Notes: generated by a model not told the origin, from the sequence alone. Positions 1-60,770 are shown, counted from the first letter of the stretch. The stretch: 64,000 nucleotides of DNA from Coleofasciculus sp. B1-GNL1-01 (GCA_040220235.1 JAVJTO010000060.1), one strand, 5' to 3'. Numbers and translations are program-made.

Positions 1-1157
1 AGCTTTACTTTGAATCGCTCAAAGCAGACATACTGCTTCTCAATTGAAAATGAAACCTCACCTGCATCATATTTATAAAACCCTTCTTCAAATTCAAAAC
101 TTATGGGCAAGTTTACAAGATTATCTTTTGATCCTGTACTATCTTCCCAGAGGAAATATTCTTGCCATTTTTCGTGGTTACGTAAAGGTTCACTGATTTG
201 CAATAAGACTTCAGTAAACTTAAAGTCCTTCTGGAAAGAACAATGGACAGGCAACCATTTTGCCGACAGCCCTAGTACATCTTGCAATTCTTCATATTTT
301 CTGCCACTGAAGACAGTGCTGACGATAATCTCTGACTGTCCTGTAATTCGCCAAATTAGCGTCTGCCAACAGGCGAATAAGAATTCAGCAACTGTGGTTT
401 GGTGTAGAGTGGCGATTTTTTCGAGCTTCGCCACTACTTCTGGCTCAATCCTCAGGGCATAAACATCGGGTTCAAATCCCGTTTTTCCACTAGGCTTGCG
501 CTCAAAAGGAAGGGTTAGCGCTGGAAGTGAACCTAAGTTTTGCTTGTGCCAGTACGCTTTTCCGAGTTCGGCATCTTCTTCTAATAATTCATTCTGCCAT
601 TCAGAAAATTGAATATATTGTACTGGTTCATCAGTCAATTTCTCATTTTTCAAGCCTTTGCTGTAGATGTAACTCAGTTCTTTAACCAGATTTTTTAGCG
701 TCCAGCTATCTGCACACAGTGATGGCAGGGTAATGAGCAAAATATGTTGAGTGGCTGACAGGCTAATTAGGGATGAGCGTAGAATAGAATCTTGCTCAAA
801 ATTGAAAATAAAGCACTTTTCTTTCTGAAACAGTTCCTCAATTTTTGCTTGCTGTTCCTTTGGATCTGAATCACTCAGATTGAAGTAATTCCATAATGGG
901 ATGCCGCTATTGTGTATGACTTGAATAGGGAGTTTTATCCCAGGTTGCCGATAGAATGTTGTGCGAAGGATTTCATGGCGATTGACGACTTGCTGTAAAG
1001 CGTCTTCTAGTACTTCTGTTTTGAGTTTACCTTCAATCCGAAGAACACACTGGGCACGGTAAACGAGATTATTGTGTTGTAATGACCACAGATGTTTTTG
1101 CTGTGGGGAGAGTCGAAAGCCTTGAATAGTTTGATTTTGCATTGTTTGATTTTGCAT
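1..1157 (-). CDS. NRPS, 5' part only (runs off window); N-terminal interface (I)-type degenerate condensation domain
   Basis: Not in the ORF track because it has no stop in the window. Segments translated by hand from ATG 1157 (or 1142) give MQNQTMQNQTIQGFRLSPQQKHLW...ITLPSLCADSWTLKNLV...KQYVCFERFKVK, clearly paralogous to the N-terminus of 23956..28530. LPSLCAD replaces HHxxxDG. Confidence 0.85.
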   Translation of the reverse strand, partial: MQNQTMQNQTIQGFRLSPQQKHLWSLQHNNLVYRAQCVLRIEGKLKTEVLEDALQQVVNRHEILRTTFYRQPGIKLPIQVIHNSGIPLWNYFNLSDSDPKEQQAKIEELFQKEKCFIFNFEQDSILRSSLISLSATQHILLITLPSLCADSWTLKNLVKELSYIYSKGLKNEKLTDEPVQYIQFSEWQNELLEEDAELGKAYWHKQNLGSLPALTLPFERKPSGKTGFEPDVYALRIEPEVVAKLEKIATLHQTTVAEFLFACWQTLIWRITGQSEIIVSTVFSGRKYEELQDVLGLSAKWLPVHCSFQKDFKFTEVLLQISEPLRNHEKWQEYFLWEDSTGSKDNLVNLPISFEFEEGFYKYDAGEVSFSIEKQYVCFERFKVK

Positions 1158-1173
1158 TTTTTGTTCAAATCCT

Positions 1174-4100
1174 TTAAATGTTTTTACTAGAAATCATTTC
1201 TCCCATTGCCACTACAATTTTGCGTGAACCAACGTAGGGATTTCGCCCATGAGCAATTAACATATTATCTAGCATCAATATGTCTCCTTGCTGCCAAGGG
1301 AAGCTGACTTTAGCTTCTTGATAAACTTCTCCAATTTCTGCCATGACTGAGTCTTCAATGGGAGAACCATCACCGTAATAGACATTGCGCGGTAGATTTT
1401 CTTCCCCAAGCGTTGATAGTAGAGATGCCTTAATAGCTGGCTCTAGGCATGATATATGGTGTAATTGCACTTGATTAAAAAATAATGACTCTCCTGTTTT
1501 GGGATGTTGAGAAATTGCTGGTCGCACTTTGCGGATTCTTAGGCTATTACCTGAGAGCCACTCGAAATCAATGCCAGACTGACGACAATAATTTTCGACA
1601 GCTATTTTGTCAGTGGTGTGAAAGAAATCTTGCCAACTTACATCTAGACCTTCGATGTAGTTGCGGACATACATTAATTGTTTTTGCTTGAATCTTTCTC
1701 GTAGTTTTGGATTGAGACGTTGATAGACTTTGCGGCAGTCAACAATCGGAGTTTCTCCACCTTGGTGCGCTGGCTGCACGCAGAAAAACCAAATTTTAAG
1801 GGGCCACTGGTGCATGTGGGAACTTTCGTTATGGAAGAGAATGGCTTGGTTAGAAGGATAAGGGGTAGAACCATAGACTCTGCCACTGATGCCTTCCCTA
1901 GGTAAGTCACCATACTCACCAAACAACTTGGGACAAATAGCACTGGCTACTTTTTCAAATTCAGGTACTGACTTGACATTGAATCCTCGGAAGAGAATTG
2001 CACCGTGTTGCAGCAAATTAGTTTCAATGAATTCGCGTTTGTTAGTTGCCCAGTCAGCTAGGTCAATATCATCTCCATCGGGTTGAATAACATAAGGGAG
2101 GTTTTGTCCAGGCTGGAGATAATCTGTTTTGATTAACTCTTTTTGGGGTAGGCTAACAGTCTTAGGCTTGATAGTTTTGAATTTCTTGAACTGCGCTTTT
2201 TCACGCTGATTTGTTTCAGCAATTTGTTGCTGCTTTTCAGATTCACTAAGCATTTCTAAGGTATTAATTCTGGTATCGGGGTGTTGGGCAATGCTGTGTA
2301 GCAGCGTCTGAAAGTGAGCTGACAGACGGGTAATCGCCTCAGCTTCAAATAGGTCAGTGCGGTATTTCCAATTGCCAACGATTCCTTGCTCTGTGTCTTG
2401 CATAAAGAGAGCTAAATCAAATCTGGCTTTATCGCTATTGACTTCTATTGAGGTGAGAGTCAGACCTGAAAACTCCACAGCAGGCATAGGAGTATTCTGG
2501 AGGACAAATAACACCTGAAATAGGGGGGTTTTACTTGTAGCCCGGTCTGGACGCAAACTTTCTACCAATTTGGCGAAAGGCAAATCTTGATGAGCATAAG
2601 CTCCTAAGCAGACTTCCTGCACTCTTTTTAGTAGTTCTCGGAAGGTGGGGTTACCAGACAAGTCACTGCGCAATAACAGGAGGTTGATAAAAAATCCTAT
2701 TAGGGGTTCTATTTCAGCTCGATGGCGACCGGCAACATCAGTACCAACTATAATGTCATCCTGATTGGTGTAGCGGTACAGTAGTGTCTGAAAAGCTGCC
2801 AGTAAAGTCATAAACAGGGTTACCCTTTGTTTGCGACTCAGTGTTTTGAGTTGTTGAGACAGGTGAGTTGATATTAGGAAGGATTGAGCTACAGACTCCT
2901 GTTTTCTGGTAGTTAGAGGGGGAGGGTCTGCTATTTTCTGTAAATTCAGTGTAGCGGGAGCACCCGCCAGTTGTTGCCGCCAGTAAGAAAGCTGGTTTTC
3001 CAGTACTTCTCCTTGTAGCCACTGACGCTGCCAGACTGCAAAGTCTGTATACTGGATGGGAAGCTCTGGTAGCGGAGAGGGCTGACCTTGAGAGAATGCC
3101 TCATAGAGTGTTGCCAGTTCTGTTATCAACACTCCCATAGACCATCTATCAAAAATAATGTGGTTTGTACTGAACAGTAGCACATGTTCCTGCTCATTTA
3201 GTTTTAGCAGCTTTACTCTCAGCAACGGGTCTTGAGCTAAGTCGAATAATTTTTGACTCCACTCATTGGCTAACCGCTGGACTTCACTCTTCTGCTCAGC
3301 TTCTGGCAACTGGCACAAGTTCACTACCGACAAACTAATATCTAAGGATGGGGCGATCCGCTGAATGGGTTGTCCCTCAACAACAGGAAATGTAGTGCGA
3401 AAGACTTCATGACGACGCACAATTTCGTTGAAGGCCTGCTCCAGTGCTGCTACATTGAGTAAACCAACTAGACTTACAGCGTCTAGTTCGTTATAGCTAC
3501 CTGAGTCTAGTTGCTCTAGAAACCACAGCCGCTGCTGAGCAAAAGACAGGGGTAATTTGCCATTTCGTGAGACGCGCTTGATGGATTGCTCGAAGTCTTT
3601 CTGGAGCACTTTTGTTGTCTGGAAGTTAGAAGGGGGATAGCCTCCAACTTCTGGAGATTGGCAATGAGCGATAAGCGATCGCAACGCTTCGATAAAACTC
3701 TGTGCCAGGTTCTCAATCGTAGCTCGCTGATGAATTGCCTCACTGTAAGTCCAATCGAGTCGTAGCTGACCTCCAGCAACAATCCCGTTAATATCTAATA
3801 GATGGCTGCGACTTCCCCGCAAGCTAAGTGCTTGTCCGCTAGGTTCTCGAGCTGGTACAAACAGAGATGACTCCTGGAATACCTGGTCAGTCTGGCCCAG
3901 ATAATTAAACGCGATTTCAGCTTGAGGCTGATGCTGCCAAGACGTTGTCTCCTCACCCTTGAGATAGCGTAAAACGCCATAGCCAATTCCTCGATTTGGA
4001 ATACTTCTGAGCTGTTCTTTAATCGTCTTTAAAGCATCTCCCGGACTAGCAGATTCCTCGATATCCAGCAAAACGGGGAAGATAGTAGTGAACCAGCCCA

Positions 4101-7100
4101 CAGTACGTGATAGGTCTACATCATCAAAGATTTCCTCCCGTCCGTGACCCTCAAGGTCAATTAGCAGTGAGTACACCCCTGTCCACTGGGCAAAAGCTTG
4201 TACCAGCGCTGTAAGCAGTACATCATTAATTTGAGTCTGATAAGCTGCCGGTACTTCCTGTAGCAATGCTTGAGTTTCTTCCTTGCTCAGAGCTACCGAC
4301 ACATTCCTCGCTTTAGCCACAGTATTATCGCCTTCAGGAAAGTCTACTGGGATGTGGGCAATTTGCCGACGAGACTCCCTCAGCCAGTAATCCAACTCTT
4401 GTTGTAGTGCTTCAGATTGGGCGTACTCCCTTAATCTTTCCGCCCAATACTTGAACGAGGTTGTTTTAGGTGACAACTGAATCTCTTTGCCCTGACTGAG
4501 TTGTTGGTAGGCACTCTGGAGGTCTTCTAACAAAATCCGCCAAGAGACACCATCAACGGCTAGGTGGTGGATGACCAACAGCAAGCGGTCAGGCTTGTTG
4601 GCACCTAAGTTAAAGTAGGCTACCCGCACCAGTGGTCCTGAGGATAGATTGAGGCTGGCTTGTAGTTCAGTCGCAGCTTTCGATATGGCTAGCCCTCGTT
4701 CTGTCTCTGAAACCGTTGACAAATCTAGCAGAGTAAATGGCGTTAACTCATCAGGGTTAACCTCAAGCTGCTGCCAGTCTGTTTCCTGGTGAACAAAGCA
4801 CAGGCGCAGAGCATCGTGGTGTTCGAGCAGTTTCTGCACTGTCTGCTCCAACAGTGCCGGGTCAAGTGCTTGCCGAACTTCCAGTAAAATTGATTGATTC
4901 CAATGATGAGACTCAGGAAGATTTTGCTCAAAGAACCAGTGCTGAATAGGAGTTATAGGCACTTTACCTGTCACCAACCCCTGTTGAGCTTGAATAACTC
5001 GGTTCGTGGCAGCCACTGCTGCTAGTTCGGCAATTGTCTGGTGTTCAAACATCTGCTTGATTGTCAGATTCAGACCAGTCTGGTTTGCTCTAGCGACGAT
5101 CTGGATACTGAGGATGGAATCCCCACCTAAGTCAAAGAAATTATCGTGTACTCCTATCTTTTCGAGTCTGAGAACCTTAGCCCAAATTTCAGCTAGGACT
5201 TTCTCAACAGTAGTACGAGGTGCTACAAAAGTTTCTTCCTCCTCAGATCTGGTTAGATCGGGTGCTGGTAGTGCTTTTCGGTCTACTTTGCCGTTGGGTG
5301 TTAAGGGTAAGGTGTCTAAGGTGACAAAGGCATTTGGCACCATGTATTCGGGTAGCTTTAAAAAGAGAAATTCACGCAGTTGCTTAGTAGTGAGTGATTC
5401 ATCTCTAGTAACGATATAGGCAACTAAACGTTTGTTACCAGGAAGATCTTCTCTGGCAATAACTACAGCTTGTTGGATTTGGGAGTGAGTGTTGAGGAAG
5501 GATTCGATTTCTCTGAGTTCGATGCGGAAACCCCGAACTTTCACCAGGCGATCGAGGCGACCAAGAAACTCAATTGTTCCGTCCGTTCGGTAACGCACGC
5601 GATCACCCGTTTTGTAAAGACGCGCTCCTGGTGTTTCACTAAATGGATCGGGAATAAACGCCAGTGCTGTGAGTTCCGGTCGGTTTAAATAACCTCTAGC
5701 GACACCAACTCCTCCGATGTAAAGTTCTCCTGGAACACCTACTGGCACTGGCTGTAAGTATGGGTCGAGGATGTAAGTCTTGGCATGGCTAATTGCTTTG
5801 CCGATGGGCAGTTCTTGCCCTGAAATATCGACATCTGTAAGATCTGACAAGTCAACAGCGGTCGTCACGATGGTTGCTTCTGTAAGACCGTAGGTATTGA
5901 CCAGGCGTACCCTTCGATCGACCTGCTGCTGCCAGGTAGTGAGTCGCTTTGGCAACGCTTTTTCACCGCCAATAATGACCAAGCGCACACAATCCGGTAA
6001 GGTCAAATTCAGGGCTGGCAATTCAGCAACCATTTGATGCCAGAATGCAGTGGGTAAGTCGAGTACCGTCAGTTGCCAATCGTCGCAACATCGGAGAAAT
6101 GCTGGGATGGAACTCAACATTTCGTCGGTTCGCAAGACTAGCATTGCTCCTCGTGCCAGACAGGGAAAAATTTCTTCAGCAGCAGCATCGAAGCTGATGG
6201 ACGCAAATTGCAAAATGCGATCGCTAGAAGAAATCGCGTATTCAGCCATCGCCGCCTGAGTATAATTCACCAACGACTGGTGTTGAATCATGACTCCCTT
6301 GGGTTTGCCGGTGGAACCAGACGTATAGATCGCATAAGCCAGGTTCTCAGGTCGAGTGTGGCTAACTGGATTTTTGCGGCTTTCCTGTGCAATCAACGTC
6401 CAGTCTGCATCCAAGCAAACCACAGACGATTTGAGATCGGGAAGCCTTGCGACTAAAGCCTCCTGAGTGAGCAGAACCGACACCTGTGAATCTGATAAAA
6501 GAAATCGTTGACGCTCTTGAGGATAGGCTGGGTCTACAGGCAGATAGGCTCCTCCTGCTTTGAGAATTCCTAGCAATCCCACGACCATCTCTAAGGAACG
6601 TTCTACACAGATTCCCACCAGTACCTCTGGTTTTACGCCAAGCTTTTGCAAATGATGCGCTAGCTGATTGGCTCTGACGTTTAGTTCTCGGTAGGTTAGC
6701 TGTTGCTCTTCAAATACTACCGCTACTGCATCCGGTGTTCTCTCTACCTGCTTCTCAAATAACTGATGAATACATTTCTCTAAGGGATATTCACTCTCGG
6801 TCTCATTCCACTTCACCAACAACTGATGACGTTCTGCTTCACTCAACAAGGGTAATTCAGCTACAGTTTGTTGAGGATTTTCTACAATGGCTGATAACAA
6901 GTTCTGAAAATGAGCTGTCATGCGCTCAATGGTTGACCCATCAAACAAGTCAGTATTGTATTCCCATTCGCCCACTAATCCCTGAGTCGTTTCAGTCATT
7001 GACAGGGTTAAATCAAACTGAGCAATTGTGCTTTCCCGCTCTAAGGGAGTCAACGTCACACCGGGTAACTCTACTTCCCCCATCGGTGCATTCTGCAAGA

Positions 7101-8376
7101 TAAACATCACCTGAAACAGAGGAGAATGACTCAAGGAGCGTTGGGGTTGCAAGGCTTCTACTACTTGCTCAAAAGGCACGTCCTGATGTTCGTAGGCTTT
7201 GAGTGTGGTTTCCCTAACTTGTGCCAGTAAGTCCTTGATCCTGGGATTATCTTCAAAACGGGTTCTCAACACCAAAGTATTCACAAAAAAGCCAATCAAA
7301 GATTCAATTTCACGGCGGTGGCGATTGGCTATAGGAGAACCCATTAAAATATCTGATTGACCGCTATAGCGATAGAGTAAAGTGGCAAACGCCGCCAACA
7401 GGGTCATAAATAAAGTTGTCCCCGACTCCCGAGACAGGGTTTGCAACTTTTGGGTTAAATCAGTATTTAAAGTAAAACTGTGAGTCGTCCCTCGGTAAGT
7501 TTGCACAGTTGGACGAGGGTGGTCAGTCGGTAATTGTAACAATTCTGGCGCACCCTGCAATTGAGAAAGCCAGTAATTGAGTTGAGCTTCTAGTACCTCT
7601 CCACTCAACCACTGTCTTTGCCAAATGGCAAAGTCGGCATACTGGATTGGTAATTCGGCTAAGGGAGATGGTTCTCCTGCACCAAAAGCTTGATATAAAC
7701 TAGACAGTTCTTGGATAAATACACCCATCGACCAACCATCAGAGATAATATGGTGCATTGTCAGTAACACTACAGATTCTGTTGCTGATAGCTGCAACAA
7801 ACTGCACCTAATTAAGGGTGCTATCTCCAAGTTAAAGGGGGTAATGGCTTCTTGTTGTGCTTGTTGGTGTAGGACAGTTTCTCGTTCTGTTACTTCTAGT
7901 GGCTCTAAGTCCACCACATTTATCTTCAGGGTGGCTTCTGAGTGAATTACCTGTATGGGTGTGCCGTTAACAGTTTGGAAGCTAGTGCGTAGTACTTCGT
8001 GGCGGCGTACTATTTCTGATAAGGCTTGTTGCAGGGCATTAACATCCAAGTTACCACTGAGGCGGACTGCCCCTGGTATGTTGTAAGTGGCACTTGACCC
8101 TTCCAGTTGGTTGAGGAACCACAGTCGCTGCTGGGCAAAGGACAGGGGTAAATCTGTATCCCTTGGGACAGGCAGAATTGGCTTAATACTAAAACTTGAG
8201 GCAAAATCAGTTTTTTTCAAAAATTCGATTATTTCTGATTTGCGCTCTCGTAGCTGAGACTTCAGAGTCGGTGTCAGCGTTCCTTCAGGGGCATTATAAT
8301 GTAGCTGCTCACCATCAACCCAGAACCTTACGTCTAGACTTTGAAAGCAAGATAAGAATTCATCAATGGGTTTCAT
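1174..8376 (-). CDS. NRPS: docking-C-A(basic amino acid, Lys/Arg-like)-T-E-C-TauD-like beta-hydroxylase
   Basis: C HHIISDGWS; A YTSGSTGKPKG with hand-read code DAEDIGTIVK; T GGDSI; E HHLAVDGVSW/EGHGRE; second C NHIIFDRWS; C-terminal Fe/2OG domain HNE...DNMLIAHGR. Confidence 0.92.
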   Translation of the reverse strand: MKPIDEFLSCFQSLDVRFWVDGEQLHYNAPEGTLTPTLKSQLRERKSEIIEFLKKTDFASSFSIKPILPVPRDTDLPLSFAQQRLWFLNQLEGSSATYNIPGAVRLSGNLDVNALQQALSEIVRRHEVLRTSFQTVNGTPIQVIHSEATLKINVVDLEPLEVTERETVLHQQAQQEAITPFNLEIAPLIRCSLLQLSATESVVLLTMHHIISDGWSMGVFIQELSSLYQAFGAGEPSPLAELPIQYADFAIWQRQWLSGEVLEAQLNYWLSQLQGAPELLQLPTDHPRPTVQTYRGTTHSFTLNTDLTQKLQTLSRESGTTLFMTLLAAFATLLYRYSGQSDILMGSPIANRHRREIESLIGFFVNTLVLRTRFEDNPRIKDLLAQVRETTLKAYEHQDVPFEQVVEALQPQRSLSHSPLFQVMFILQNAPMGEVELPGVTLTPLERESTIAQFDLTLSMTETTQGLVGEWEYNTDLFDGSTIERMTAHFQNLLSAIVENPQQTVAELPLLSEAERHQLLVKWNETESEYPLEKCIHQLFEKQVERTPDAVAVVFEEQQLTYRELNVRANQLAHHLQKLGVKPEVLVGICVERSLEMVVGLLGILKAGGAYLPVDPAYPQERQRFLLSDSQVSVLLTQEALVARLPDLKSSVVCLDADWTLIAQESRKNPVSHTRPENLAYAIYTSGSTGKPKGVMIQHQSLVNYTQAAMAEYAISSSDRILQFASISFDAAAEEIFPCLARGAMLVLRTDEMLSSIPAFLRCCDDWQLTVLDLPTAFWHQMVAELPALNLTLPDCVRLVIIGGEKALPKRLTTWQQQVDRRVRLVNTYGLTEATIVTTAVDLSDLTDVDISGQELPIGKAISHAKTYILDPYLQPVPVGVPGELYIGGVGVARGYLNRPELTALAFIPDPFSETPGARLYKTGDRVRYRTDGTIEFLGRLDRLVKVRGFRIELREIESFLNTHSQIQQAVVIAREDLPGNKRLVAYIVTRDESLTTKQLREFLFLKLPEYMVPNAFVTLDTLPLTPNGKVDRKALPAPDLTRSEEEETFVAPRTTVEKVLAEIWAKVLRLEKIGVHDNFFDLGGDSILSIQIVARANQTGLNLTIKQMFEHQTIAELAAVAATNRVIQAQQGLVTGKVPITPIQHWFFEQNLPESHHWNQSILLEVRQALDPALLEQTVQKLLEHHDALRLCFVHQETDWQQLEVNPDELTPFTLLDLSTVSETERGLAISKAATELQASLNLSSGPLVRVAYFNLGANKPDRLLLVIHHLAVDGVSWRILLEDLQSAYQQLSQGKEIQLSPKTTSFKYWAERLREYAQSEALQQELDYWLRESRRQIAHIPVDFPEGDNTVAKARNVSVALSKEETQALLQEVPAAYQTQINDVLLTALVQAFAQWTGVYSLLIDLEGHGREEIFDDVDLSRTVGWFTTIFPVLLDIEESASPGDALKTIKEQLRSIPNRGIGYGVLRYLKGEETTSWQHQPQAEIAFNYLGQTDQVFQESSLFVPAREPSGQALSLRGSRSHLLDINGIVAGGQLRLDWTYSEAIHQRATIENLAQSFIEALRSLIAHCQSPEVGGYPPSNFQTTKVLQKDFEQSIKRVSRNGKLPLSFAQQRLWFLEQLDSGSYNELDAVSLVGLLNVAALEQAFNEIVRRHEVFRTTFPVVEGQPIQRIAPSLDISLSVVNLCQLPEAEQKSEVQRLANEWSQKLFDLAQDPLLRVKLLKLNEQEHVLLFSTNHIIFDRWSMGVLITELATLYEAFSQGQPSPLPELPIQYTDFAVWQRQWLQGEVLENQLSYWRQQLAGAPATLNLQKIADPPPLTTRKQESVAQSFLISTHLSQQLKTLSRKQRVTLFMTLLAAFQTLLYRYTNQDDIIVGTDVAGRHRAEIEPLIGFFINLLLLRSDLSGNPTFRELLKRVQEVCLGAYAHQDLPFAKLVESLRPDRATSKTPLFQVLFVLQNTPMPAVEFSGLTLTSIEVNSDKARFDLALFMQDTEQGIVGNWKYRTDLFEAEAITRLSAHFQTLLHSIAQHPDTRINTLEMLSESEKQQQIAETNQREKAQFKKFKTIKPKTVSLPQKELIKTDYLQPGQNLPYVIQPDGDDIDLADWATNKREFIETNLLQHGAILFRGFNVKSVPEFEKVASAICPKLFGEYGDLPREGISGRVYGSTPYPSNQAILFHNESSHMHQWPLKIWFFCVQPAHQGGETPIVDCRKVYQRLNPKLRERFKQKQLMYVRNYIEGLDVSWQDFFHTTDKIAVENYCRQSGIDFEWLSGNSLRIRKVRPAISQHPKTGESLFFNQVQLHHISCLEPAIKASLLSTLGEENLPRNVYYGDGSPIEDSVMAEIGEVYQEAKVSFPWQQGDILMLDNMLIAHGRNPYVGSRKIVVAMGEMISSKNI

Positions 8377-13517: not shown

Positions 13518-13570
13518 AGCTCTATTTCCTTTCTTCCTTTCCAAGCTTTACATTCAGGCTATAATCGTAG

Positions 13571-48104: not shown

Positions 48105-48164
48105 TTGACAGGGGCAACAGCGCCAGTTTAGGTTTAGCTCTTGCTGATGCAAATAGTTATCAAT
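48105..48164 (+). promoter_or_regulatory. Putative promoter plus Fur-box-like operator of the fhuF-MFS-acylase-TE operon
   Basis: TTGACA(48105)-18 nt-TAGGTT, then ATGCAAATAGTTATCAAT (48147-48164). Confidence 0.6.
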
Positions 48165-53128: not shown

Positions 53129-53146
53129 CAAAGCGTGCGATCGCCT

Positions 53147-53548
53147 CTACTGTCTCTGAGCAGCGATCGCTAATTTGGTTCCCTCAATTTGACGCAACCG
53201 ATCCATCACACTTACCACCCGACCATGATCGACTTTTTCATCAGCATTGACAATGACCAGGGATTCACTATTCGGCACAACTAAAGCGCGAACCGCTTCT
53301 TCAAGCGCCTCTAATTCAATCGACTGGCGATTCAGTGCAATCTCTCCATCCGGCTGAATCGTAACCGTAATTTCAGTACTCGGCTGATTTTGGGCAGTTG
53401 TCGCATCCGGTAAATTCACCGACAACCCTTCTGAACGGGTCAAATATAGCGTCGAAATAATGAAAAATGCCAAAATCGAGAAAATCACATCGATCATCGG
53501 CACGATGTTGATTTCTCCTGGCTTCTCTGACTCATCGGGAAGCCGCAT
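53147..53548 (-). CDS. exbD: Biopolymer transport protein ExbD
   Basis: EINIVPMIDVIFSILAFFI, VNADEKVDHGRVVSVMD; start at MRLPDE. Confidence 0.92.
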   Translation of the reverse strand: MRLPDESEKPGEINIVPMIDVIFSILAFFIISTLYLTRSEGLSVNLPDATTAQNQPSTEITVTIQPDGEIALNRQSIELEALEEAVRALVVPNSESLVIVNADEKVDHGRVVSVMDRLRQIEGTKLAIAAQRQ

Positions 53549-54182
53549 AAACCTCTCTCCTTTGCTCATATTGACGACGATAAAGCAGTTCTAACTGACC
53601 GCCATATTCCTGAATCAACGCCAGTTGTCGCTGATAAAAGCTTCGGAATATATTGGCGAAAAAGAGGGTGAAAATTGCCACAACCAACCCCATGACAGTT
53701 GAAACCAAAGCTTCGGAAATTCCTCCCGTGACTCCCGTCGTGCGGGTTCCCCCAACATCACCAATATTCAGCGAAGAAAACGCTGTGATCAAACCCAAAA
53801 TTGTTCCCAAAAGACCGAGGAGAGGAGCAATACCAACAATCGTATCAAACACGGTATTAAATCGCTTCAACGTTGGCAATTCTGCCTGCGCTGCACTCTC
53901 TAAAGCCAGACGGAATTCCTCCGGGTTCGGGTTATCGAGTTCTAACGCTTCGAGAAAAATTTTGGCGATCGGCAAATCAGCATTCTGCTGTAGATAGTTA
54001 ACCGCCGCGTCTGGCTTTTCTCGGTAAACCTTCAGAAAGTCTCTCACAACTCGGCGTTGCCGACGAGTGACCCGAAACCAGAAAAACAATCGCTCTACAA
54101 TCAGGGCGACTGCCGCCAGGGAAAATAGGAGTAGGGGCCAAGCGACGATTCCGCCTGCCTGGAAAAATGGAATAATGGGCAT
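53532..54182 (-). CDS. exbB: MotA/TolQ/ExbB proton channel
   Basis: APLLGLLGTILG, GISEALVSTVMGLVVAI; directly upstream of exbD. Confidence 0.9.
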   Translation of the reverse strand: MPIIPFFQAGGIVAWPLLLFSLAAVALIVERLFFWFRVTRRQRRVVRDFLKVYREKPDAAVNYLQQNADLPIAKIFLEALELDNPNPEEFRLALESAAQAELPTLKRFNTVFDTIVGIAPLLGLLGTILGLITAFSSLNIGDVGGTRTTGVTGGISEALVSTVMGLVVAIFTLFFANIFRSFYQRQLALIQEYGGQLELLYRRQYEQRREVYAASR

Positions 54183-54247: not shown

Positions 54248-54296
54248 CTGATAATTATTTTCAATAGATGTATTGCTAAATCGGTTTCCTTGTCAA
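54248..54296 (-). promoter_or_regulatory. Fur-box-like operator and -35 element upstream of exbB
   Basis: Minus strand: TTGACA (54296-54291), then ATTGAAAATAATTATCAG (54265-54248). The -10 is not clear. Confidence 0.65.
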
Positions 54297-54437
54297 GGTG
54301 TTGAGCGAAATATTTTTCGTTACTCAAGAGTCGCCAGGACATTTAGCGATCGCTTACCTAGACAAAACCACCCTATAATAGGGCGTTTAGCGACTCTTGG
54401 AGGGACTAACTGCTACGATTACCGGAACTTTTCCTAC

Positions 54438-54494
54438 TTGACAGGGAGAGTCAATTGTTATATTTTAAGCAAATTTGTTGAAAATAACTATCAA
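54438..54494 (+). promoter_or_regulatory. Putative promoter plus Fur-box-like operator upstream of tonB
   Basis: TTGACA(54438)-17 nt-TATTTT, then TTGAAAATAACTATCAA (54478-54494). Confidence 0.65.
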
Positions 54495-54641: not shown

Positions 54642-56411
54642 ATGAGCATATCGAGCTTCTGTATAGAGCAGCACAAAAAGGAACAAGAGGCTCTCAAAAA
54701 GTTTCTCATCTATAGCTTTGCCGGGAGTGCGGTGCTGCATATAGTGCTGGCTCTTGGCATAAGCTGGGCTTGGGAAACAAGACCAGAAATTGCCGAAGAC
54801 CCTATTGAAATCATACTTGTGGAGGAACCTGAAGTACCTAAACCAGAAGAACAACCTCTAAAAGAGACTCCAAAGCCAAAACCAAAGGCAGTTGAAACCC
54901 CAACTCCACCGCAACCGACCAAAACCCAGATACCAGAGCTAATTAAACCGCAGCAACGGGCTGACGCTTTACCTCAAAAACCCGTTAAGCAACCCGTACC
55001 CGCTATACCAGCAACACCTCAAAAACCCGTAACGCCACCTGCACCCACCTCAGTAGAGCCACCCACTGAACCGACAAGGGAAAGCAGACCCGTTGTTACA
55101 CCTCCCTCAGAACCCGTTCGTGAACCCTCAGAACCTGATCCCCTATCACCACCTGAACCCGTCGCCATTAATAATTCAGCACCACCCCGCCCAGAGAACA
55201 ACTCCCAACCGCTTCAGACTGACTCAGACGTAGAAAACATTAGAGAACGCTTAAGCGAACCAACGACGACAGAATCAGCCGCGTCCCCCAATGATGACGC
55301 CTCTGAAGCCGACCCCACATCCCCAGGTGAAGTGGCAACAAATCCCTCAGCCCCCCCACAACCCAGAGGAGTTTCTGGAATACTTTCGGATGCATCAAAG
55401 ATTACTAGGCAAATCAGAGAGCGCTTAGGCGGTAGCCCTTCAGAATCGACATCTCCAAGTGCTGAAGACTCAATGGCTGACCCTGGCTCGCCAGGAACAG
55501 TGGCAACTAATCCCTCAGCCCCTACACGACCCCGCAGTAGTTCCCAACCGCTTTCCGGCTCCGCCTCGGGTTCGGAGCAATTGAGAGAAAGCTTGGGCGG
55601 TAGCAGTTCTGCCGAACGAGCTTCATCAAGTGAAGGCGACTCAATGGCTGACCCTAGCTCGCCCGGCGCAGTGGCAACCAATCCCTCAGCCCCGACGCGA
55701 CCCAGTGGTAGTTCCCAACCACTTCCCGGCTCCGCCTCGGGTTCGGAGCAATTGAGAGAAAGCTTGGGCGGTGACAGTTCTGCCGAACGAGCTTCATCAA
55801 GTGAGGGTGGCTCAATGGCTGACCCTGGCTCCCCAGGCGCAGTAGCAACCAATCCCTCAGCACCCACGCGACCCGCAGGCAATTCTGAGTCACTCCCCGT
55901 TTCCTCAGCAGCAGGTTGCGTGGCGACAAGCAAGCCGGAATTTCCATCATCACTAGCCAATCAAGGTATCGAAGCGAGACCCGTTGTCGAATTAATTGTC
56001 GATGGAAGCGGTCAGGTCATCGAGTCGAAGCTCGTGGAACCCAGCCCCTATCCTGCCGTTAATCAAGCTGCCCTTGAAACGGTAACAAGTGTGAGTTGTC
56101 CAGCACAAGGTAACCGCCGTCGAGTACGAATGGGAATTAGTTTTGCTCAGGAGGGAACTGACTTTGAACGGGAAGCCCGTCAACGCGCCGAACAGCTAGA
56201 ACAGGAACGTCGAGAACGGGAACGTCAGGCGCAGCTGGAACGGGAACGTCAAGAACGGGAACGTCAAGCGCAGCTAGAACGGGAACGTCAAGAACAAGAG
56301 CGTCAAGAGCAACTCGAACAAGAACGCCTGGAACAAGAACGTCAAGAACAACTTGAACGCGAACGCCTAGAACAGGTGGAAGAATTACCCCCTCCCGAAC
56401 CTACAGAGTAA
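54642..56411 (+). CDS. tonB: TonB-family energy transducer with long repetitive linker and E/R/Q-rich C-terminal tail
   Basis: N-terminal TM with SAVLH (SxxxH); Pro-rich spacer; TonB_C-like PEFPSSLANQGIEARPVVELIVDGSGQV...NQAALE; divergent from exbBD. Confidence 0.8.
   Translation: MSISSFCIEQHKKEQEALKKFLIYSFAGSAVLHIVLALGISWAWETRPEIAEDPIEIILVEEPEVPKPEEQPLKETPKPKPKAVETPTPPQPTKTQIPELIKPQQRADALPQKPVKQPVPAIPATPQKPVTPPAPTSVEPPTEPTRESRPVVTPPSEPVREPSEPDPLSPPEPVAINNSAPPRPENNSQPLQTDSDVENIRERLSEPTTTESAASPNDDASEADPTSPGEVATNPSAPPQPRGVSGILSDASKITRQIRERLGGSPSESTSPSAEDSMADPGSPGTVATNPSAPTRPRSSSQPLSGSASGSEQLRESLGGSSSAERASSSEGDSMADPSSPGAVATNPSAPTRPSGSSQPLPGSASGSEQLRESLGGDSSAERASSSEGGSMADPGSPGAVATNPSAPTRPAGNSESLPVSSAAGCVATSKPEFPSSLANQGIEARPVVELIVDGSGQVIESKLVEPSPYPAVNQAALETVTSVSCPAQGNRRRVRMGISFAQEGTDFEREARQRAEQLEQERRERERQAQLERERQERERQAQLERERQEQERQEQLEQERLEQERQEQLERERLEQVEELPPPEPTE
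55470..55875 (+). repeat. 171-bp (57-aa) tandem repeat inside tonB
   Basis: TCAATGGCTGACCC recurs at 55470, 55641 and 55812. Two more diverged copies lie upstream (about 55140 and 55300). Confidence 0.9.
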
Positions 56412-56495
56412 AAATGTAATCCAATGCTAGATGCAATCTCTAAAAATAACTCAACAATTAGCCCCATCTATTTCAATAAAGGAGGTATTGGTCTA

Positions 56496-57557
56496 ATGCT
56501 TCGTACAATCGGACGATTTGGAATAACCTTACTCATTGCCTCAAGTGTAGATATTGCCAGCCACGTTATCAATCCCTCGATCGCAGTAGCAGGTGTCGTC
56601 ACGTTACCCGATGGGGGTCGCTGCGAAGGACCAATGAGCAACGGTAACCTCAACGGTGAGGTCGTATGTGAATACGCAAATGGCGATCGCTATGAAGGAA
56701 ACTTTGTCGATGGCAACAAGAAAGGTCAAGGCACTTACACCTTTGCTGATGGCGGTCGTTATGAAGGTGAGTTTAGCAACGACCAACCCAATGGCAAAGG
56801 AGTCCGGGTGTACGAAAATGGCGATCGCTATGAAGGGGAGTTTAAGGACGGTCAGCCTAATGGCACGGGAGCCTATATTAGCGCCGATGGCGGTCGCTAT
56901 GAGGGACAGTTTACGGATGGCAATCCTAGCGGTACAGGAGCCTTTATTTTAGCCAATGGCGATCGCTGTGAAGGGGAAATTCAAGACAGTAGCCTTAATG
57001 GGATGGGGGTGTGCGACTATGCGAATGGCGATCGCTATGAAGGTGAACTGAGTGATGGTAAGCCGAACGGTCAAGGAGTCTACACCTTCTCTGAGGGGGG
57101 GCGCTACGAAGGAACGTTTAGTAATGGTCAGTTCAGTGGCAAAGGGGTTCGGGACTATGCCAATGGTAATCGCTACGAAGGGGAATTTAGTAATGGCAAA
57201 CCCGAGGGTCAAGGGGTGTACGTCTTCGCTAATGGAAACCGCTACGAAGGTCAATTCAGTAACGGTCAATTTAACGGCGAAGGTGTTTTCACCGACGCCA
57301 ATGGTAATCGTTACGAAGGACAGTTTAGTAACGGTAAGTTCAACGGCACTGGAATTTATACGTTTGCGAATGGCGATCGCTGCGAAGGACAGTTCAGTGA
57401 GGGTCAGTTAAACGGCAAAGCTGTCTGTAACTATGCCAGTGGGGATAGCTTTGAAGGAGAATTCCGCAATGGACAAAGGCAGGGAGAAGGTGTCTATATT
57501 TTCGCTGACGGAACCCGTGTGGAGGGAAATTGGGAAAATGGGGAAATGAAAAATTAG
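56496..57557 (+). CDS. MORN-repeat protein, probably exported
   Basis: Many 23-aa YEG(E/Q)FxxGxxxGxGxxxxxxGxR repeats after a signal-like N-terminus. Start 56496 preferred; 56424 is possible. Confidence 0.88.
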   Translation: MLRTIGRFGITLLIASSVDIASHVINPSIAVAGVVTLPDGGRCEGPMSNGNLNGEVVCEYANGDRYEGNFVDGNKKGQGTYTFADGGRYEGEFSNDQPNGKGVRVYENGDRYEGEFKDGQPNGTGAYISADGGRYEGQFTDGNPSGTGAFILANGDRCEGEIQDSSLNGMGVCDYANGDRYEGELSDGKPNGQGVYTFSEGGRYEGTFSNGQFSGKGVRDYANGNRYEGEFSNGKPEGQGVYVFANGNRYEGQFSNGQFNGEGVFTDANGNRYEGQFSNGKFNGTGIYTFANGDRCEGQFSEGQLNGKAVCNYASGDSFEGEFRNGQRQGEGVYIFADGTRVEGNWENGEMKN

Positions 57558-57682
57558 TTTGGGAATGGGGAATAGGTGATAGAAAGTTATGAATTATGAA
57601 TTCATAACTCTCTAAGACCTAGAACCTAAAATCTAAACCCTTTCGAGTTGAAATGGCAATAATTGATTAAAGGAAGAAGCGA

Positions 57683-58717
57683 TTGGCAAGCGAGATTGCT
57701 ACGGTAAGAGGGAAAAGTAGGGGGCGATCGCGCCTTTTACTCGCCGTGGGTTTGTCACTGAGTCTGTTCATTCTACTGATCAGCTTGGTGGCAAGCATTA
57801 CCTATGGTGCCGCCGATATTTCCTTCGATACTGTCTATACCGCTTTAACCGACTTTGATGGTTCTACCGATCACCTGATTATCCGCACAGTCAGATTGCC
57901 GCGATCGCTGATTGCCATGCTAGTGGGTGCCGCCCTTGCGGTGGCAGGTGCCCTGATGCAGGGATTAACTCGCAACCCTTTAGCGTCGCCGGGAATCCTG
58001 GGAGTTAATGCGGGTGCGGCAATGGCAGTCGTCATTGCTGTTTTCCTCTTCGGTTCATCTTCCCTGAGTGTCTATGCTTGGTGTGCCTTTGGGGGGGCAG
58101 GTGTTACGGCAATCACCGTCTATTTGCTCGGATCTCTGGGGCGAGGGGGACTGACTCCACTCAATCTGACGATTGCGGGTGCGGCATTGACTGCCTTACT
58201 GTCCTCACTCACCACTGCTATCCTCATCCTTAGCCAACAAACCCTCGATGAAATCCGCTTCTGGTTAGCTGGATCGGTGGCAGGTCGGGATTTCACGTTG
58301 TTTTTACAAGTACTGCCTTACATCGGCATTGGATTAGCGATCGCGTTTGCCTTAGGGAAACAAATGACCACCCTAACCCTGGGTGACGATGTGGCTAAAA
58401 GCTTGGGTCAACAAACCCTATGGGTGAAACTAACCGCCGCCGTGAGTGTGGTTTTGCTGGCAGGGAGCGCTGTCGCGGCGGCTGGTCCGATTGGATTTAT
58501 TGGTCTGGTGGTTCCCCACATCGTCCGCTTCTTAGTGGGTGTTGATTATCGCTGGATTCTGCCTTATTCTGCCGTTTTTGGTGCCATTTTACTCTTGATC
58601 GCCGATATCACTGCCAGGGTGTTGATTAGTCCTCAAGAATTGCCCGTGGGTGTCATGACTGCTCTAGTGGGCGCTCCGTTCTTCATCTATCTAGCGCGGT
58701 TCAAGGTGAGACGATGA
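57683..58717 (+). CDS. Fe-siderophore ABC transporter permease (FecCD/FhuB family)
   Basis: [43 protein letters not shown]. Confidence 0.92.
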
Positions 58718-59760
58718 GAAAAAGCTGGCTGATTATTCGTCCCCGACTATTGCCGATATCGTTCCGTTTAGAACGGCGCGTACCAACCGTACTCCTCCTA
58801 TTAGTTTTGGTGACTCTCTTGGCGATCGTTATCAATGTGGGACAAGGGGAATATCCTATTCCACCATTGGCTGTTTTAAAAACGATTGTGGGGTTGCCGA
58901 CAGATAACTCCGACTATGCCTTTATTGTGAATGTGCTGCGGTTGCCCAGAACGTTAGTCGCCTTTGGGGTAGGAGTAGGATTAGCCATCTCTGGGACGAT
59001 TTTGCAAGGACTTACACGCAATCCCTTAGCCGATCCCGGCATCATTGGGGTGAATGCGGGTGCGAGTTTAGCGGCTGTTAGTTTAATCGTTTTATTTCCA
59101 GATGTGCCGCTGTTTGCCCTACCTTTGTCTGCCTTTGCTGGGGCGTTGGTTGTTGCTATCTTGATCTACCTTCTGGCTTGGGATAAGGGCAGTTCTCCCA
59201 TCCGGTTAATTCTCGTCGGTGTCGGGATAGCCGCTATCCTAGGGGCTTTGACGAATTTAATGGTCACGTTCGGAGAAATTAATAGTGTCAGTCAAGCATT
59301 AGTTTGGCTGGCGGGAAGTGTCTACGGACGGGGTTGGCAGCATGTTGGGGCATTATTCCCCTGGCTGGCGGTGTTTTTACCCCTGTCGTTAGCGCTTTCG
59401 ATGCAACTGAATACCCTCTCCCTGGGAGAGGATCTTGCCAGAGGACTGGGGGCGCGAGTGGAATGGCAGCGGGGTTTGTTATTGCTCATGAGTGCGGCAA
59501 TGGCGGGTGCGGCTGTGGCTGTGGCGGGTACGATTGGCTTTGTGGGATTGATGGCACCGCACTTGGGACGTCAGTTGGTTGGACCCAATCATGAGGGGTT
59601 AATGCCAACAGCCGCGCTGATGGGTGGACTAATTATTGTGCTGGCTGATTGGTTGGCACGAATACTCTTTGCGCCCATCGAGTTGCCCTGTGGTGCGATT
59701 ACTGCTGCTGTCGGTGCCCCTTATTTTCTCTATCTGCTGGTTCGCAACCGCAAGCGATGA
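58714..59760 (+). CDS. Fe-siderophore ABC transporter permease (FecCD/FhuG family)
   Basis: [39 protein letters not shown] overlap with the previous gene. Confidence 0.92.
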
Positions 59761-59867
59761 CCCTATTTAATTTAGGGGTTGCTGAATAAGTGTTGTGGTG
59801 AGGGGGAGCGGGGGAAGCTGGGGGAGATAGGGGAGATAGGGGAGGTGAACTCAAAACTCTACCTTAC

Positions 59868-59945
59868 CTATTGCCCATTCCCGATTGCCCATTGCCCATT
59901 GCCCATTGCCCATTGCCCATTGCCCATTGCCTGTTCCCTGTTCCC
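59868..59945 (+). repeat. Heptamer short tandem repeat (CCATTGC)n and variants
   Basis: Directly visible between the permease and the ATPase; preceded by G-rich 9-mers at about 59805-59845. Confidence 0.85.
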
Positions 59946-59984
59946 TTTCCTAACCAAAATGTCCCGCTTTAGACCGATAACCAA

Positions 59985-60770
59985 ATGAGCTTATTGTCAA
60001 CTCGCCGACTATCTCTGGCGTATGATGGAACACCTGTGATCACGAACCTCGACCTGGCAATTCCTGTCGGGAAGATTACGGCTTTAGTTGGACCAAACGG
60101 CTGTGGCAAATCAACCCTGTTGCGGGGACTGGCGAGGTTGCTCAAGCCTTGTGCAGGTACAGTTTACCTAGACGGAACTGATATTTTCCAGCGCTCAACA
60201 AAAGCTGTGGCGAAGCGACTGGGAATTCTCCCCCAAAGTCCAGTAGCTCCGGAGGGGTTGACGGTTCGAGATTTGGTCGCTCAGGGTCGTTATCCTTACC
60301 AAAACTGGTTGCAGCAATGGTCAAAAGAGGATGAAATCCTGGTGGAGAAGGCGCTTTTCATTACCGGGATAACCCAACTGGCAGACCGAGTATTGGATAC
60401 GCTTTCTGGTGGACAACGGCAACGAGCTTGGATTGCTATGGCACTAGCTCAGGATACGGAGATTCTGCTATTGGATGAACCGACAACGTTCTTAGACTTG
60501 GCGCATCAAGTCGAGGTATTGGATTTGTTGTATGAGTTGAATCAGAGCGAAGGACGGACGATTGTTATGGTACTGCACGACCTGAATCAGGCGTGTCGCT
60601 ACGCCAATCATCTGGTTGCCGTGCGGCAGGGTCAAGTTTATACCAAAGGAGAGCCAATGCAAGTGGTGACGGAGGCGATGGTGCGTGAAGTGTTTGGTTT
60701 GGAGTGTCGGATTGTGCCTGACCCGGTAGCGGGGACACCAATGTGTGTACCAATGGGTCGCTGGGTGTAA
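59985..60770 (+). CDS. Fe-siderophore ABC transporter ATPase (FecE/FhuC family)
   Basis: [38 protein letters not shown]. Confidence 0.93.

Follow-up and report, generated by a model that had tools for sequence, protein, structure and literature searches.

A predicted cyanochelin-like siderophore line in Coleofasciculus with a PanP-like decarboxylase embedded in an adenylation domain

The window analysed here, a stretch of 64,000 nucleotides of Coleofasciculus sp. B1-GNL1-01, belongs to contig C60 of the genome (G000), which carries a synthetase cluster of 18 co-directional genes (58.6 kb). The synthetase genes form a single minus-strand run with intergenic gaps of -4 to 91 nt; all synthetase reading frames are open, and no stops or frameshifts were found in the 18 genes. 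In an earlier note on this DNA, the line was described as unfinished at the left edge. This holds within the window, whereas on contig C60 the cluster ends 10.9 kb further to the left and the line is complete there. The description as one operon applies to the synthetase genes only, since the MFS/acylase/thioesterase, exbBD and tonB/ABC genes are oriented otherwise than this run and belong to separate transcription units. Contig C60 holds 9 of the 14 matches to the A3 motif in the genome, in which no IucA/IucC synthetase was found. The A-domain specificity codes for the window were taken from the alignment.

The line starts with NRPS 1 (42322..47691), for which Pfam and the code give FAAL-ACP-C-A(Ser, DVWHISLIDK)-T and which is predicted to provide an acyl-Ser starter. 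A near-identical serine code (DVWHFSLIDK) is contained in the available part of the cyanochelin B supplement (PMC12628792), and the Ser, Gly and Asp codes are equal to, or one to two letters off, the cyanochelin B codes with observed residues given there. The adjacent stand-alone Fe/2-oxoglutarate dioxygenase (TauD by Pfam; 41416..42282) forms its own branch in the tree and occupies the slot between FAAL-Ser and KS-AT-KR°-T-E also in G005, G006 and G166. A role as Asp β-hydroxylase was rejected, since its tree position lies outside both Asp β-hydroxylase clades. Searches of solved structures, the Atlas and homologues returned no function for it, and it is suspected to hydroxylate the first ketide at C2. 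According to domain calls and motifs, PKS 1 (35327..41356) comprises KS-AT-KR°-T-E with malonyl-type AT motifs; its KR lacks the catalytic Lys and shows YPAAH in place of YxxxN. The combination of degenerate KR and E is common to G005, G006, G166, G202, G414 and L120. The next, strain-variable slot is taken by a sulfotransferase (34277..35245; Pfam) with 34.7% GC, which is absent from G005 and G006, present in metagenome run X2 and skipped in X6 and X7, with 1123 other letters instead in X1. Relatives of the sulfotransferase in G000 and G001 lie within polysaccharide loci.

NRPS 3 (28609..34218, likely start ATG at 34185) comprises C(DCL)-A(Gly, DILQLGLIWK)-T-C-TauD and, based on Pfam, code and tree, includes a fused Asp β-hydroxylase. 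It is followed by NRPS 4 (23956..28530) with interface-A(Asp, DLTKIGHIGK)-T-E, as determined by code and alignment. Such a C-TauD/interface-A(Asp) unit is named as the signature of βOH-Asp in the available part of the cyanochelin uptake preprint. It occurs twice in the line, both TauD domains falling into the fused hydroxylase clade of the tree. The next gene encodes a stand-alone C domain (22456..23901), assigned to the DCL clade by clade and motif analysis. In its motif HFLIVDG, Phe replaces the second His, so that the catalytic His is missing. A strain lesion or assembly error was rejected as explanation, since HFLIVDG is kept in 7/7 cluster members and HF recurs ahead of other Dab modules. 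A diaminobutyrate-2-oxoglutarate transaminase (21116..22441), predicted to supply Dab, scored 613.8 bits against NF006733 (cut-off 438) and 571.2 against TIGR02407 (cut-off 552.2). NRPS 6 (18250..21075) comprises half-C-A-T by Pfam, and its code DIWEMTADDK is taken by us to be that of Dab; in related cassettes, a neighbouring transaminase supports this assignment. The C domain and the Dab module match the last module of PRK05691, presumably a PvdL-like model. In PKS 2 (13571..18217; KS-AT(malonyl-type)-KR-T by domain calls and motifs) the K/S/Y/N residues of the KR are all intact, and 4,6-diamino-3-hydroxyhexanoyl is the predicted product.

Based on Pfam, code and model, NRPS 8 (8373..13544) comprises C-A(β-Ala, VDAVFSIADK)-T with an interrupted A domain. 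Between motifs a5 and a6 (approximately residues 851-1424) it contains a PanP-like PLP-dependent aspartate 1-decarboxylase (9345..10937; TIGR03799) with a domain of ~490 aa and K1174 as PLP lysine. PanP (TIGR03799) is by far the best family model, with 517.8 bits over profile positions 54-522 compared to 139.3 bits for RhbB (Dab decarboxylase) and 38.9 for GAD. A Dab decarboxylase forming diaminopropane was rejected on this difference (139 vs 518 bits). Although the score lies below the curated equivalog cut-off of 606.1, and the insert therefore stands outside TIGR03799, it is predicted to work like PanP. The PLP Lys is present in 72/72 aligned sequences, and the predicted structure shows a group II decarboxylase fold with a TM by target of 0.82-0.84 to 4rit/4rlg. 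Among the solved relatives of the insert are GAD, CSAD and Dab decarboxylases, and a modelled dimer of the decarboxylase would pass on its resemblance to solved structures. Different from PanP, the enzyme is embedded in an NRPS, and the genome encodes a separate PanD for CoA synthesis. Among the matches listed, 118 of 120 long homologues have the A core before and the C-terminal A part after the decarboxylase, and the decarboxylase-bearing A domain is spread over cyanobacteria, Bacteroidota, Gammaproteobacteria and others. Asp235 was found in 0/72 aligned A domains. The nine loci retrieved for free-standing homologues are all part of NRPS/PKS clusters, six of them beside a β-Ala-type module, and free homologues occupy the ccsR position of three clusters with cyanochelin C gene order. 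The product cyanochelin C contains NMR-proven β-Ala, as stated in the available part of the preprint (bioRxiv 10.64898/2026.07.24.740629). Judged from sequence and model, the insert appears to supply β-Ala from Asp for its host A domain.

NRPS 9 (1174..8376; Pfam, code and tree) comprises C-A(Lys/Arg, DAEDIGTIVK)-T-E-C(LCL clade)-TauD. Since E is followed here by an LCL-clade C domain, while relatives show E then DCL in 17/17 distinct pairs, D-Lys/Arg or the flux at this step is uncertain. The second C-TauD is followed by NRPS 10 with interface-A(Asp, DLTKVGHVGK)-T (1..1157; code), whose gene begins at 1157 and continues past the left edge of the window; this supports the second β-hydroxylated residue that the earlier note held to be probable. 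Beyond the window, contig C60 contains NRPS 11 (3754-9216; C-A(type IV S-methyltransferase insert, Cys-like DLYDFSLVWK)-T-R by code and motifs), a class III aminotransferase (2324-3715), two methyltransferases (1497-2261 and 639-1406) and MbtH (400-615). The methyltransferase of NRPS 11 lies between a2 and a3 and has all three type IV motifs (VLEIGCGSG, DLIILASTVQFFPGVIYL and ELQYRYD). In the available part of PMC8341866, ELQYRYD fits the motif table, its fourth to fifth letters being free positions, and NRPS 11 fits interrupted A-domain family 3 (TioN type, A2-Ms(S)-A3). The terminal cassette of S-methyltransferase Cys-like module, R, two methyltransferases and aminotransferase recurs in G026. 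At E≤1e-50 and with nine candidates scored per listed genome, the S-methyltransferase insert was found in 0/300 other genomes, a weak blank since G026 carries one at 69%. R and aminotransferase are present without any PKS in the G060 cluster. The terminal aminotransferase is closest to the AMT domain of MycA, which aminates β-keto thioesters, and could thus act on the unreduced first ketide.

The predicted line is acyl-Ser-[C2, KR degenerate, E]-Gly-βOH-Asp(E)-Dab-[C2, reduced]-β-Ala-Lys/Arg(E)-βOH-Asp-S-methyl-Cys with reductive release, and the released peptide is probably transaminated and N-methylated. The codes give Ser, Gly, Asp, Dab, β-Ala, Lys/Arg and Asp in the order proposed earlier, and the domain calls place the FAAL starter, the two KS-AT-KR modules, the fused TauD domains and the Dab aminotransferase where they had been reported. 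The KR motifs likewise agree with two PKS extensions, the first unreduced and the second reduced, and together with the codes and the TauD tree they support the proposed reading as a βOH-Asp siderophore. The sulfotransferase, the stand-alone dioxygenase and the position of the decarboxylase inside an A domain are additions to that description.

The transport and processing genes were also found where previously located. Domain calls give an MFS exporter (48843..50171), a type II thioesterase (52385..53128), and tonB, a MORN-repeat protein, two FecCD permeases and an ABC ATPase (54642..60770) on the plus strand, and Pfam gives exbB and exbD (53147..54182) on the minus strand. The Ntn acylase (50185..52332, plus strand) is closer to cephalosporin acylases than to PvdQ, which is likewise reported for CcsQ in the available parts of the cyanochelin literature. 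It shows 62% to its counterpart in a cluster with cyanochelin C order. The enzyme probably removes the acyl chain; by eye, no obvious signal peptide was found. A TonB-dependent receptor gene is left as a remnant (48209..48709, plus strand), which agrees with the 852-aa receptor of G006 over its first 10 codons and after which ~2.6 kb are deleted. Neither TonB-dependent receptors nor periplasmic binding proteins were found intact in the window. The sole receptor match in the genome (an AMIN receptor) lies near the end of contig C44, within a cassette of receptor, sucrase-ferredoxin and binding-protein genes that resembles cctA/D/B. C44 and C60 overlap exactly over their first 141 nt, and the join runs through an IS fragment, further copies of which (94-98% identical) lie elsewhere; across this join, the cluster is probably flanked by a complete receptor cassette. 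Scoring against the 7-1-7 palindrome of the Fur consensus revealed a Fur-like box upstream of the receptor remnant (48148..48162, 12/15) and two between exbB and tonB (54249..54493; 14/15 at 54249 and 13/15 at 54479). Since 137 sites at ≥13 (24 at ≥14) occur genome-wide, ~0.03 sites at ≥13 would be expected in the 1.6 kb of the two divergent intergenic regions. With the longer Fur consensus sequences of E. coli and cyanobacteria, no enrichment relative to the genome-wide rate was seen (14 hits vs 22 expected; 8 vs 6).

Genomes of the same genus have the head of the line in common and differ in their tails. The junction with the congeners lies at 25910 in NRPS 4, directly after motif a8, and a second one at 18874 in NRPS 6 was seen in metagenome strains. 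The metagenome comparison comprised contigs of 4 of the 24 listed runs (X1, X2, X6 and X7), for which absent coverage left of 18650 is not read as absence. Contigs of X1, X6 and X7 leave the window sequence at 18874. As X1 and X2 contigs cross 25910, the join of head and Dab part exists in other samples. A fused hydroxylase followed by E was observed in one of 15 other fused cases in the tree. Since the two are paired at the junction, D-erythro-βOH-Asp is predicted; a literature search for it returned only one unrelated item. The tail swaps after motif a8 in close relatives represent a natural experiment in NRPS recombination, and the locus also bears on the free combination of hydroxylase type and epimerase.

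Alterobactin, crochelin, variochelin and cupriachelin show βOH-Asp ligands, a diamino acid plus one C2 unit, and βOH-Asp beside Dab, but these systems are proteobacterial, have another order and one PKS unit. The earlier note did not recognise the module order from any compound known to its author, and neither the loci examined nor cyanochelins B and C, as far as described in the available sources, gave a gene-for-gene match, with MIBiG and the Galica 2021 set (31 cyanochelin-like clusters) outside the comparison. According to the accessible part of bioRxiv 10.64898/2026.07.24.740629, cyanochelin-like clusters are marked by a FAAL-started NRPS, a dioxygenase before interface-A(Asp), a TonB receptor and a CcsQ-type acylase. 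The present cluster has NRPS modules with a FAAL starter and, twice, a dioxygenase directly ahead of an interface-A(Asp) module. For cyanochelins A-C, the sources available in part describe an N-terminal oxazol(in)e or thiazoline from a cyclisation domain, whereas no Cy-type motif was found here and all C-type domains of the cluster are LCL, DCL, E or interface. Cyanochelin C (Myxacorys; same preprint excerpt) is similar in the FAAL fused to an NRPS, the divergent Ntn acylase, the β-Ala and Lys(E) modules, the two βOH-Asp units by C-TauD/interface and the neighbouring transport genes. It differs in its order Val-MeOx-D-Lys-β-Ala-βOH-Asp-Gly-DHABA, which has a heterocycle and no PKS, Dab or S-methyl-Cys, and in a free-standing β-Ala supply gene, named transaminase, instead of a fusion within the A domain. 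Cyanochelin B (Leptolyngbya NIES-3755; excerpts of PMC12628792) shares FAAL, a PKS/NRPS hybrid, Gly-βOH-Asp ... βOH-Asp, reductive release, and MFS and FecCD-type uptake. However, its PKS acts on the fatty acid, followed by thiazoline, its epimerase pairs with the stand-alone hydroxylase (D-threo) and not with a fused one, and its C-terminus is ethanolamine, with no aminotransferase. The order also differs from the C-terminus given for cyanochelin A in the partial source. Anachelin (Anabaena cylindrica; excerpt of PMC4247773) has a Ser-derived ketide and a reductase, aminotransferase and methyltransferase leading to a methylated C-terminal amine, but a salicylate starter, a catechol (Dmaq) ligand from Tyr and no βOH-Asp.

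The kind of system is already known, and the compound is probably an undescribed member of a known cyanobacterial class; for cyanobacterial siderophores as a whole, 24 structures are counted in the available preprint text (bioRxiv 10.64898/2026.07.24.740629). We consider it likely that the line is an iron-repressed NRPS-PKS pathway to a cyanochelin-like peptide siderophore whose sequence is undescribed. In favour of this, the acylase, MFS and uptake genes and the Fur-like boxes lie next to the synthetase genes. From genes, domains, motifs, conservation and fold compatibility we infer every substrate, the product, its regulation and iron binding as follows. A fatty acid would be loaded and coupled to Ser, and PKS 1 would add C2 without normal reduction; tentatively, the stand-alone dioxygenase would hydroxylate this unit at C2 and the E domain would epimerise it. 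Next in the line would come Gly, βOH-Asp (epimerised), Dab, a reduced C2, β-Ala, Lys or Arg, a second βOH-Asp and S-methyl-Cys, the β-Ala being formed from Asp by the PLP decarboxylase within the activating A domain. The R domain would yield an aldehyde, the aminotransferase an amine, and the two methyltransferases would methylate the latter. The acylase would take off the lipid, the MFS protein would export the product, and the two βOH-Asp would offer four Fe(III) ligands. Uptake would proceed via the one TonB-dependent receptor of the genome together with TonB/ExbBD/FecCD. The cluster thereby offers a complete testable siderophore prediction, with masses, for a mat-dwelling genus, few cyanobacterial siderophores being known.

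The deleted receptor gene, the LCL-clade C after E in NRPS 9, the His-to-Phe C domain, the rare order of fused hydroxylase and E, and the departure of X1, X6 and X7 contigs at 18874 would also fit a recent chimera, stalled or decaying, with mismatched head and tail and little or no full-length siderophore, the strain using foreign siderophores. Since the 18 genes are free of stops and frameshifts, the HF motif is conserved in all members and other Dab cassettes, X1 and X2 contigs cross 25910 and a complete receptor cassette probably adjoins, such a chimera is regarded as unlikely. Somewhat less likely again is a working line with a different product, in which the insert uses an acid other than Asp (Glu giving GABA, cysteine sulfinate giving hypotaurine, or methyl-Asp), the aminotransferase aminates the first ketide and R releases an alcohol, or an amidine forms by cyclisation of Dab. 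The sub-threshold PanP score, the range of solved decarboxylase relatives, the closeness to MycA AMT and the match to the last PRK05691 module could be read this way, and cyclic amidines from Dab occur in pyoverdine precursors. The large distance of the PanP score from those of RhbB and GAD, the free homologues at the ccsR position of clusters with the gene order of cyanochelin C, a product containing β-Ala, and the aminotransferase after R in a PKS-free cluster argue for the siderophore as predicted. It is very improbable that the product is a βOH-Asp lipopeptide serving mainly another purpose than iron uptake (e.g. antibiotic, other-metal binding), or an already described compound: βOH-Asp does occur in non-metallophores such as turnercyclamycin, according to the source available in part, but the uptake machinery, the Fur-like boxes and an acylase of putative CcsQ type are found in physical linkage here, and the order is unlike cyanochelins B, C and the C-terminus given for A in the partial sources.

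In the available parts of PMC8341866 and PMC11355689, interrupted A domains of families 1-7 carry M, Ox or KR inserts (MOx also named) at a2-a3, a6-a7 and a8-a9, which modify the loaded substrate, whereas the insert of NRPS 8 would make the free substrate. With the decarboxylase at a5-a6 and no methyltransferase at a2-a3, a6-a7 or a8-a9, NRPS 8 lies outside these families. The same excerpts contain no mention of "decarboxylase" (PMC8341866) or "decarboxyl" (PMC11355689), and literature searches judged by titles and abstract openings returned no decarboxylase fused inside an A domain. We give even chances to an unreported class of interrupted A domains in cyanobacteria, Bacteroidota, Gammaproteobacteria and others, in which a complete, probably dimeric PLP decarboxylase at a5-a6 makes, and may channel, the substrate of its host; the junction may also give a siderophore that contains D-erythro-βOH-Asp and a 2-hydroxy-3-oxo Ser-ketide, the latter possibly sulfated, and that ends in a methylated amine derived from S-methyl-Cys. 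If true, interrupted A domains would extend from substrate-modifying to substrate-making inserts, a5-a6 would offer NRPS engineering a new site at which insertions are tolerated, and the insert would be a direct β-Ala marker for genome mining. The comparison further suggests that the "transaminase" gene of cyanochelin C-type clusters is a PanP-like decarboxylase.

The synthetase genes, numbered along the assembly line, form a single co-directional run of eighteen genes on the minus strand, which reaches from window position 47691 to C60:400 (counted on the whole contig C60) and comprises 58,563 bases with spacings of -4 to 91 nt. The window corresponds to positions 11272-75271 of C60 in the source genome (G000). 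The earlier note had described one operon that was unfinished at the left edge. The former holds true for the synthetase genes, while export, acylase, TEII, exbBD, tonB and ABC genes are located in separate units. The latter applies to the window only; five and a half of the eighteen genes lie left of it on C60 and complete the line: the rest of NRPS 10, NRPS 11 (C-A(MT)-T-R), a class III aminotransferase, two methyltransferases and MbtH. Between tonB and fecCD, a MORN-repeat protein (56424-57557) is encoded, which is kept in G006, G008, G032 and G442. Short tandem heptamer repeats (ATTGCCC type) follow fecD at 59800-59940, and another, with many copies across the genome, lies at the contig end (63960-64000). 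Outside the cluster, 61141-63631 holds a methyltransferase, ureE and two DUF4168 genes.

The A-domain codes were taken from an alignment of nine adenylating domains, using what we take to be the GrsA positions. They were DVWHISLIDK for Ser, DILQLGLIWK for Gly, DLTKIGHIGK for the first Asp, DIWEMTADDK for Dab, VDAVFSIADK for β-Ala, DAEDIGTIVK for Lys/Arg, DLTKVGHVGK for the second Asp and DLYDFSLVWK for a Cys-like residue, giving the same residue order (Ser-Gly-Asp-Dab-β-Ala-Lys/Arg) as claimed before. The Dab and β-Ala codes presumably have these meanings, with which the context agrees. For Ser, Gly and Asp, the codes correspond to those which the PMC12628792 supplement gives for cyanochelin B together with the residues observed, and DLTKVGHVGK is common to Asp and Asn, with Asp in most cases. 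DAEDIGTIVK would activate either Lys or Arg: a similar pattern is given for Arg in PMC12283262, and a near-identical code occupies the D-Lys position in the G341 cluster, which has the cyanochelin C order.

Each of the two Asp modules opens with an interface domain that lacks the His and is directly preceded by a C-TauD fusion, and both fused TauD domains group in the fused clade of the tree, which supports the probable second β-hydroxylated residue. Likewise, the expected two PKS extensions, the second reduced, are reflected by an intact KR in PKS 2 and a KR without catalytic Lys and Asn in PKS 1, which ends with an E domain. Since the methyltransferase of NRPS 11, inserted between a2 and a3, carries the type IV S-methyltransferase motifs described in PMC8341866, S-methyl-Cys is the most likely final residue. 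Anachelin shows a parallel use of reductase, aminotransferase and methyltransferase (PMC4247773), and one further genome (G026) repeats reductase, aminotransferase and methyltransferases together with the same Cys-like module. The core predicted after removal of the acyl chain would be C34H61N11O16S (911.40 Da, neutral), with expected shifts of +16 for C2-OH, +28 for NMe2 or for Arg instead of Lys, and +80 for sulfate.

Cyanochelin B is acyl-thiazoline-Phe-Gly-βOH-Asp-Ser-βOH-Asp-ethanolamine (PMC12628792), cyanochelin C is Val-MeOx-Lys-β-Ala-βOH-Asp-Gly-DHABA (bioRxiv 10.64898/2026.07.24.740629) and cyanochelin A has the same C-terminus as C. None matches the order predicted here, and the full module order was not repeated at any locus examined; the nearest partial match among these loci was Dab | PKS | β-Ala(insert) of Calothrix CCY 0018. 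The named cyanochelins have a heterocycle, in contrast to the present system. Nonetheless, the two C-TauD/interface-Asp units and the FAAL starter, which mark cyanochelin-like clusters, support a βOH-Asp siderophore that would work like cyanochelin; the acylase is probably of CcsQ type, and the receptor gene inside the cluster is deleted. Altogether, the earlier observation was largely right and its interpretation is supported. All of the chemistry is what we infer, and the cluster itself is a variant of an already known class. Interest attaches to the A domain with its decarboxylase, to the uncommon stereoisomer and end group that are predicted, and to tail swapping at a8.

Fused hydroxylases are reported to yield 3S, and siderophore βOH-Asp to be D-threo or L-threo with one exception (PMC12628792). 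Since a fused TauD is combined with an E domain here, the first βOH-Asp is predicted to be (2R,3S), D-erythro. Among relatives, a TauD domain is followed by E in 1 of 15 fused rows; for stand-alone TauD, the figure is 8 of 17 resolved rows, and several rows come from near-identical strains. The C domain after the Lys/Arg epimerase belongs to the LCL clade, whereas relatives pair E with DCL in 17 of 17 distinct cases (18 rows, one duplicate).

For the first ketide, the order FAAL-Ser | TauD | KS-AT-KR°-T-E (KR°, degenerate KR) was found again in another family (G166). Because the KR°-E module of G202, G414 and L120 has a GYSIG AT and G414 contains FkbH-type extender genes, a C2-substituted ketide is suggested, which the dioxygenase would produce here. 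Against this reading, the dioxygenase of G026 goes together with an intact KR and extender genes but no E, and G414 likewise has a 46% relative.

The C domain preceding the Dab module (22456-23901) reads HFLIVDG in all seven cluster members. Its 63 metagenome relatives showed HH in 52 cases, HF in four and other residues in four, three being unaligned; three of the four HF domains lie directly before a Dab cassette and the fourth stops at a contig edge. G032 is an additional case, while HH is kept in seven other Dab cassettes. The second His seems dispensable with Dab as acceptor, and acceptor-assisted catalysis would be possible. At L081, L087, L088 and G032:C46, HF replaces HH ahead of Dab modules that start with only half a C domain.

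The A domain of the β-Ala module NRPS 8 carries an insert of about 570 residues between the strand after a5 (residue 843-850) and PIGKP before a6 (residue 1425), which scored 517.8 bits for PanP (cut-off 606.1) compared to 139.3 for Dab decarboxylase. In GTDB contigs, relatives were found at 16 loci, at 15 of which they are embedded in the A domain of an NRPS (14 cyanobacteria and one SAR324, in varying module contexts). A search restricted to proteins of 947-3016 residues (E≤1e-50), and therefore able to return long proteins only, gave 243 homologues; among the matches listed, the insert is preceded by the A-core and followed by the C-terminal part of A in 118 of 120 (own protein counted), and named sources include Electrothrix, Pedobacter, Thiothrix, Kentrum and Agarilytica. 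Free-standing forms are far commoner than fused ones (6661 matches among 8000 scored). In a 72-row selection from the long homologues, the PLP lysine is invariant and Asp235 is absent from every A domain. In an AlphaFold model of the region (pLDDT 85.7, pTM 0.62), the split A domain refolds (TM by target 0.92 to 4d56) and the insert folds as a group II decarboxylase (0.82-0.84), while its placement relative to the A domain is not given due to low-confidence linkers.

In 400 cyanobacterial genomes, 24 free-standing homologues were found; all nine examined lie in NRPS/PKS clusters, six directly adjoining a VDW-type β-Ala module. The source genome also encodes PanD. Two reviews on interrupted A domains (PMC8341866, PMC11355689) give M, Ox and KR inserts at a2-a3, a6-a7 and a8-a9 and do not contain the word "decarboxylase". 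Since searches of a mainly open-access literature, at the level of titles and abstracts, yielded no description either, the decarboxylase-bearing A domain is provisionally regarded as unreported. In three loci with cyanochelin C gene order (G055:C46, G341:C76, G376:C96), a free PanP-like gene takes the place of the "transaminase" ccsR of the preprint (bioRxiv 10.64898/2026.07.24.740629). Many A-decarboxylase-A proteins of ~1050-1300 aa (P0044, P0065, P0069-P0083 and others), the named ones from sulfur-oxidising Gammaproteobacteria, lack a detected carrier domain; partial sequences may account for some of them and free β-Ala-making ligases for others. Two free-standing decarboxylases (L011:1652-3259 and P0122) share 75-84% identity with the insert and may have escaped from a fused form.

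The early modules are common to two of eight same-genus genomes (G005, G006) at 93-98% amino-acid identity, while the tail there comprises Gly, Ala, βOH-X, R, MT and AMT and would carry a different chelator. Identity with G006 ends at 25910, within NRPS 4 and just past a8; contigs of the metagenome runs X1 and X2 span this junction and have the Dab cassette. A second departure, also just past a8, is seen at 18874 in long contigs of X1, X6 and X7. The terminal modules at G006:C190 and G005:C62 consist of a stand-alone TauD followed by an interface module with code DSALIAEVWK, which we take to be His-like, and an R domain. Nothing lies between PKS 1 and NRPS 3 in G005, G006, X6 and X7; X1 has 1123 other letters at this site, which is occupied by a sulfotransferase gene here and in X2. 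This gene is co-directional with the cluster, has 34.7% GC and presumably retains PAPS-binding-like motifs; its nearest relatives among 61 genomes are located in polysaccharide loci. A tailoring enzyme and a passenger are about equally probable.

In G005 and G006, a receptor gene lies between NRPS 1 and MFS, where the source genome keeps ten codons. This site (48209-48709) represents a deleted TonB-dependent receptor gene, the same-genus counterpart being an 852-aa AMIN receptor. The sole receptor match of the genome is found on contig C44, where binding-protein, sucrase/ferredoxin and FhuF genes form a cassette with it. The ends of C44 and C60 overlap exactly over 141 nt within an IS fragment (G000:C60:1-141 and L140:1-900), where the assembly is interrupted between the MbtH gene and the receptor cassette.
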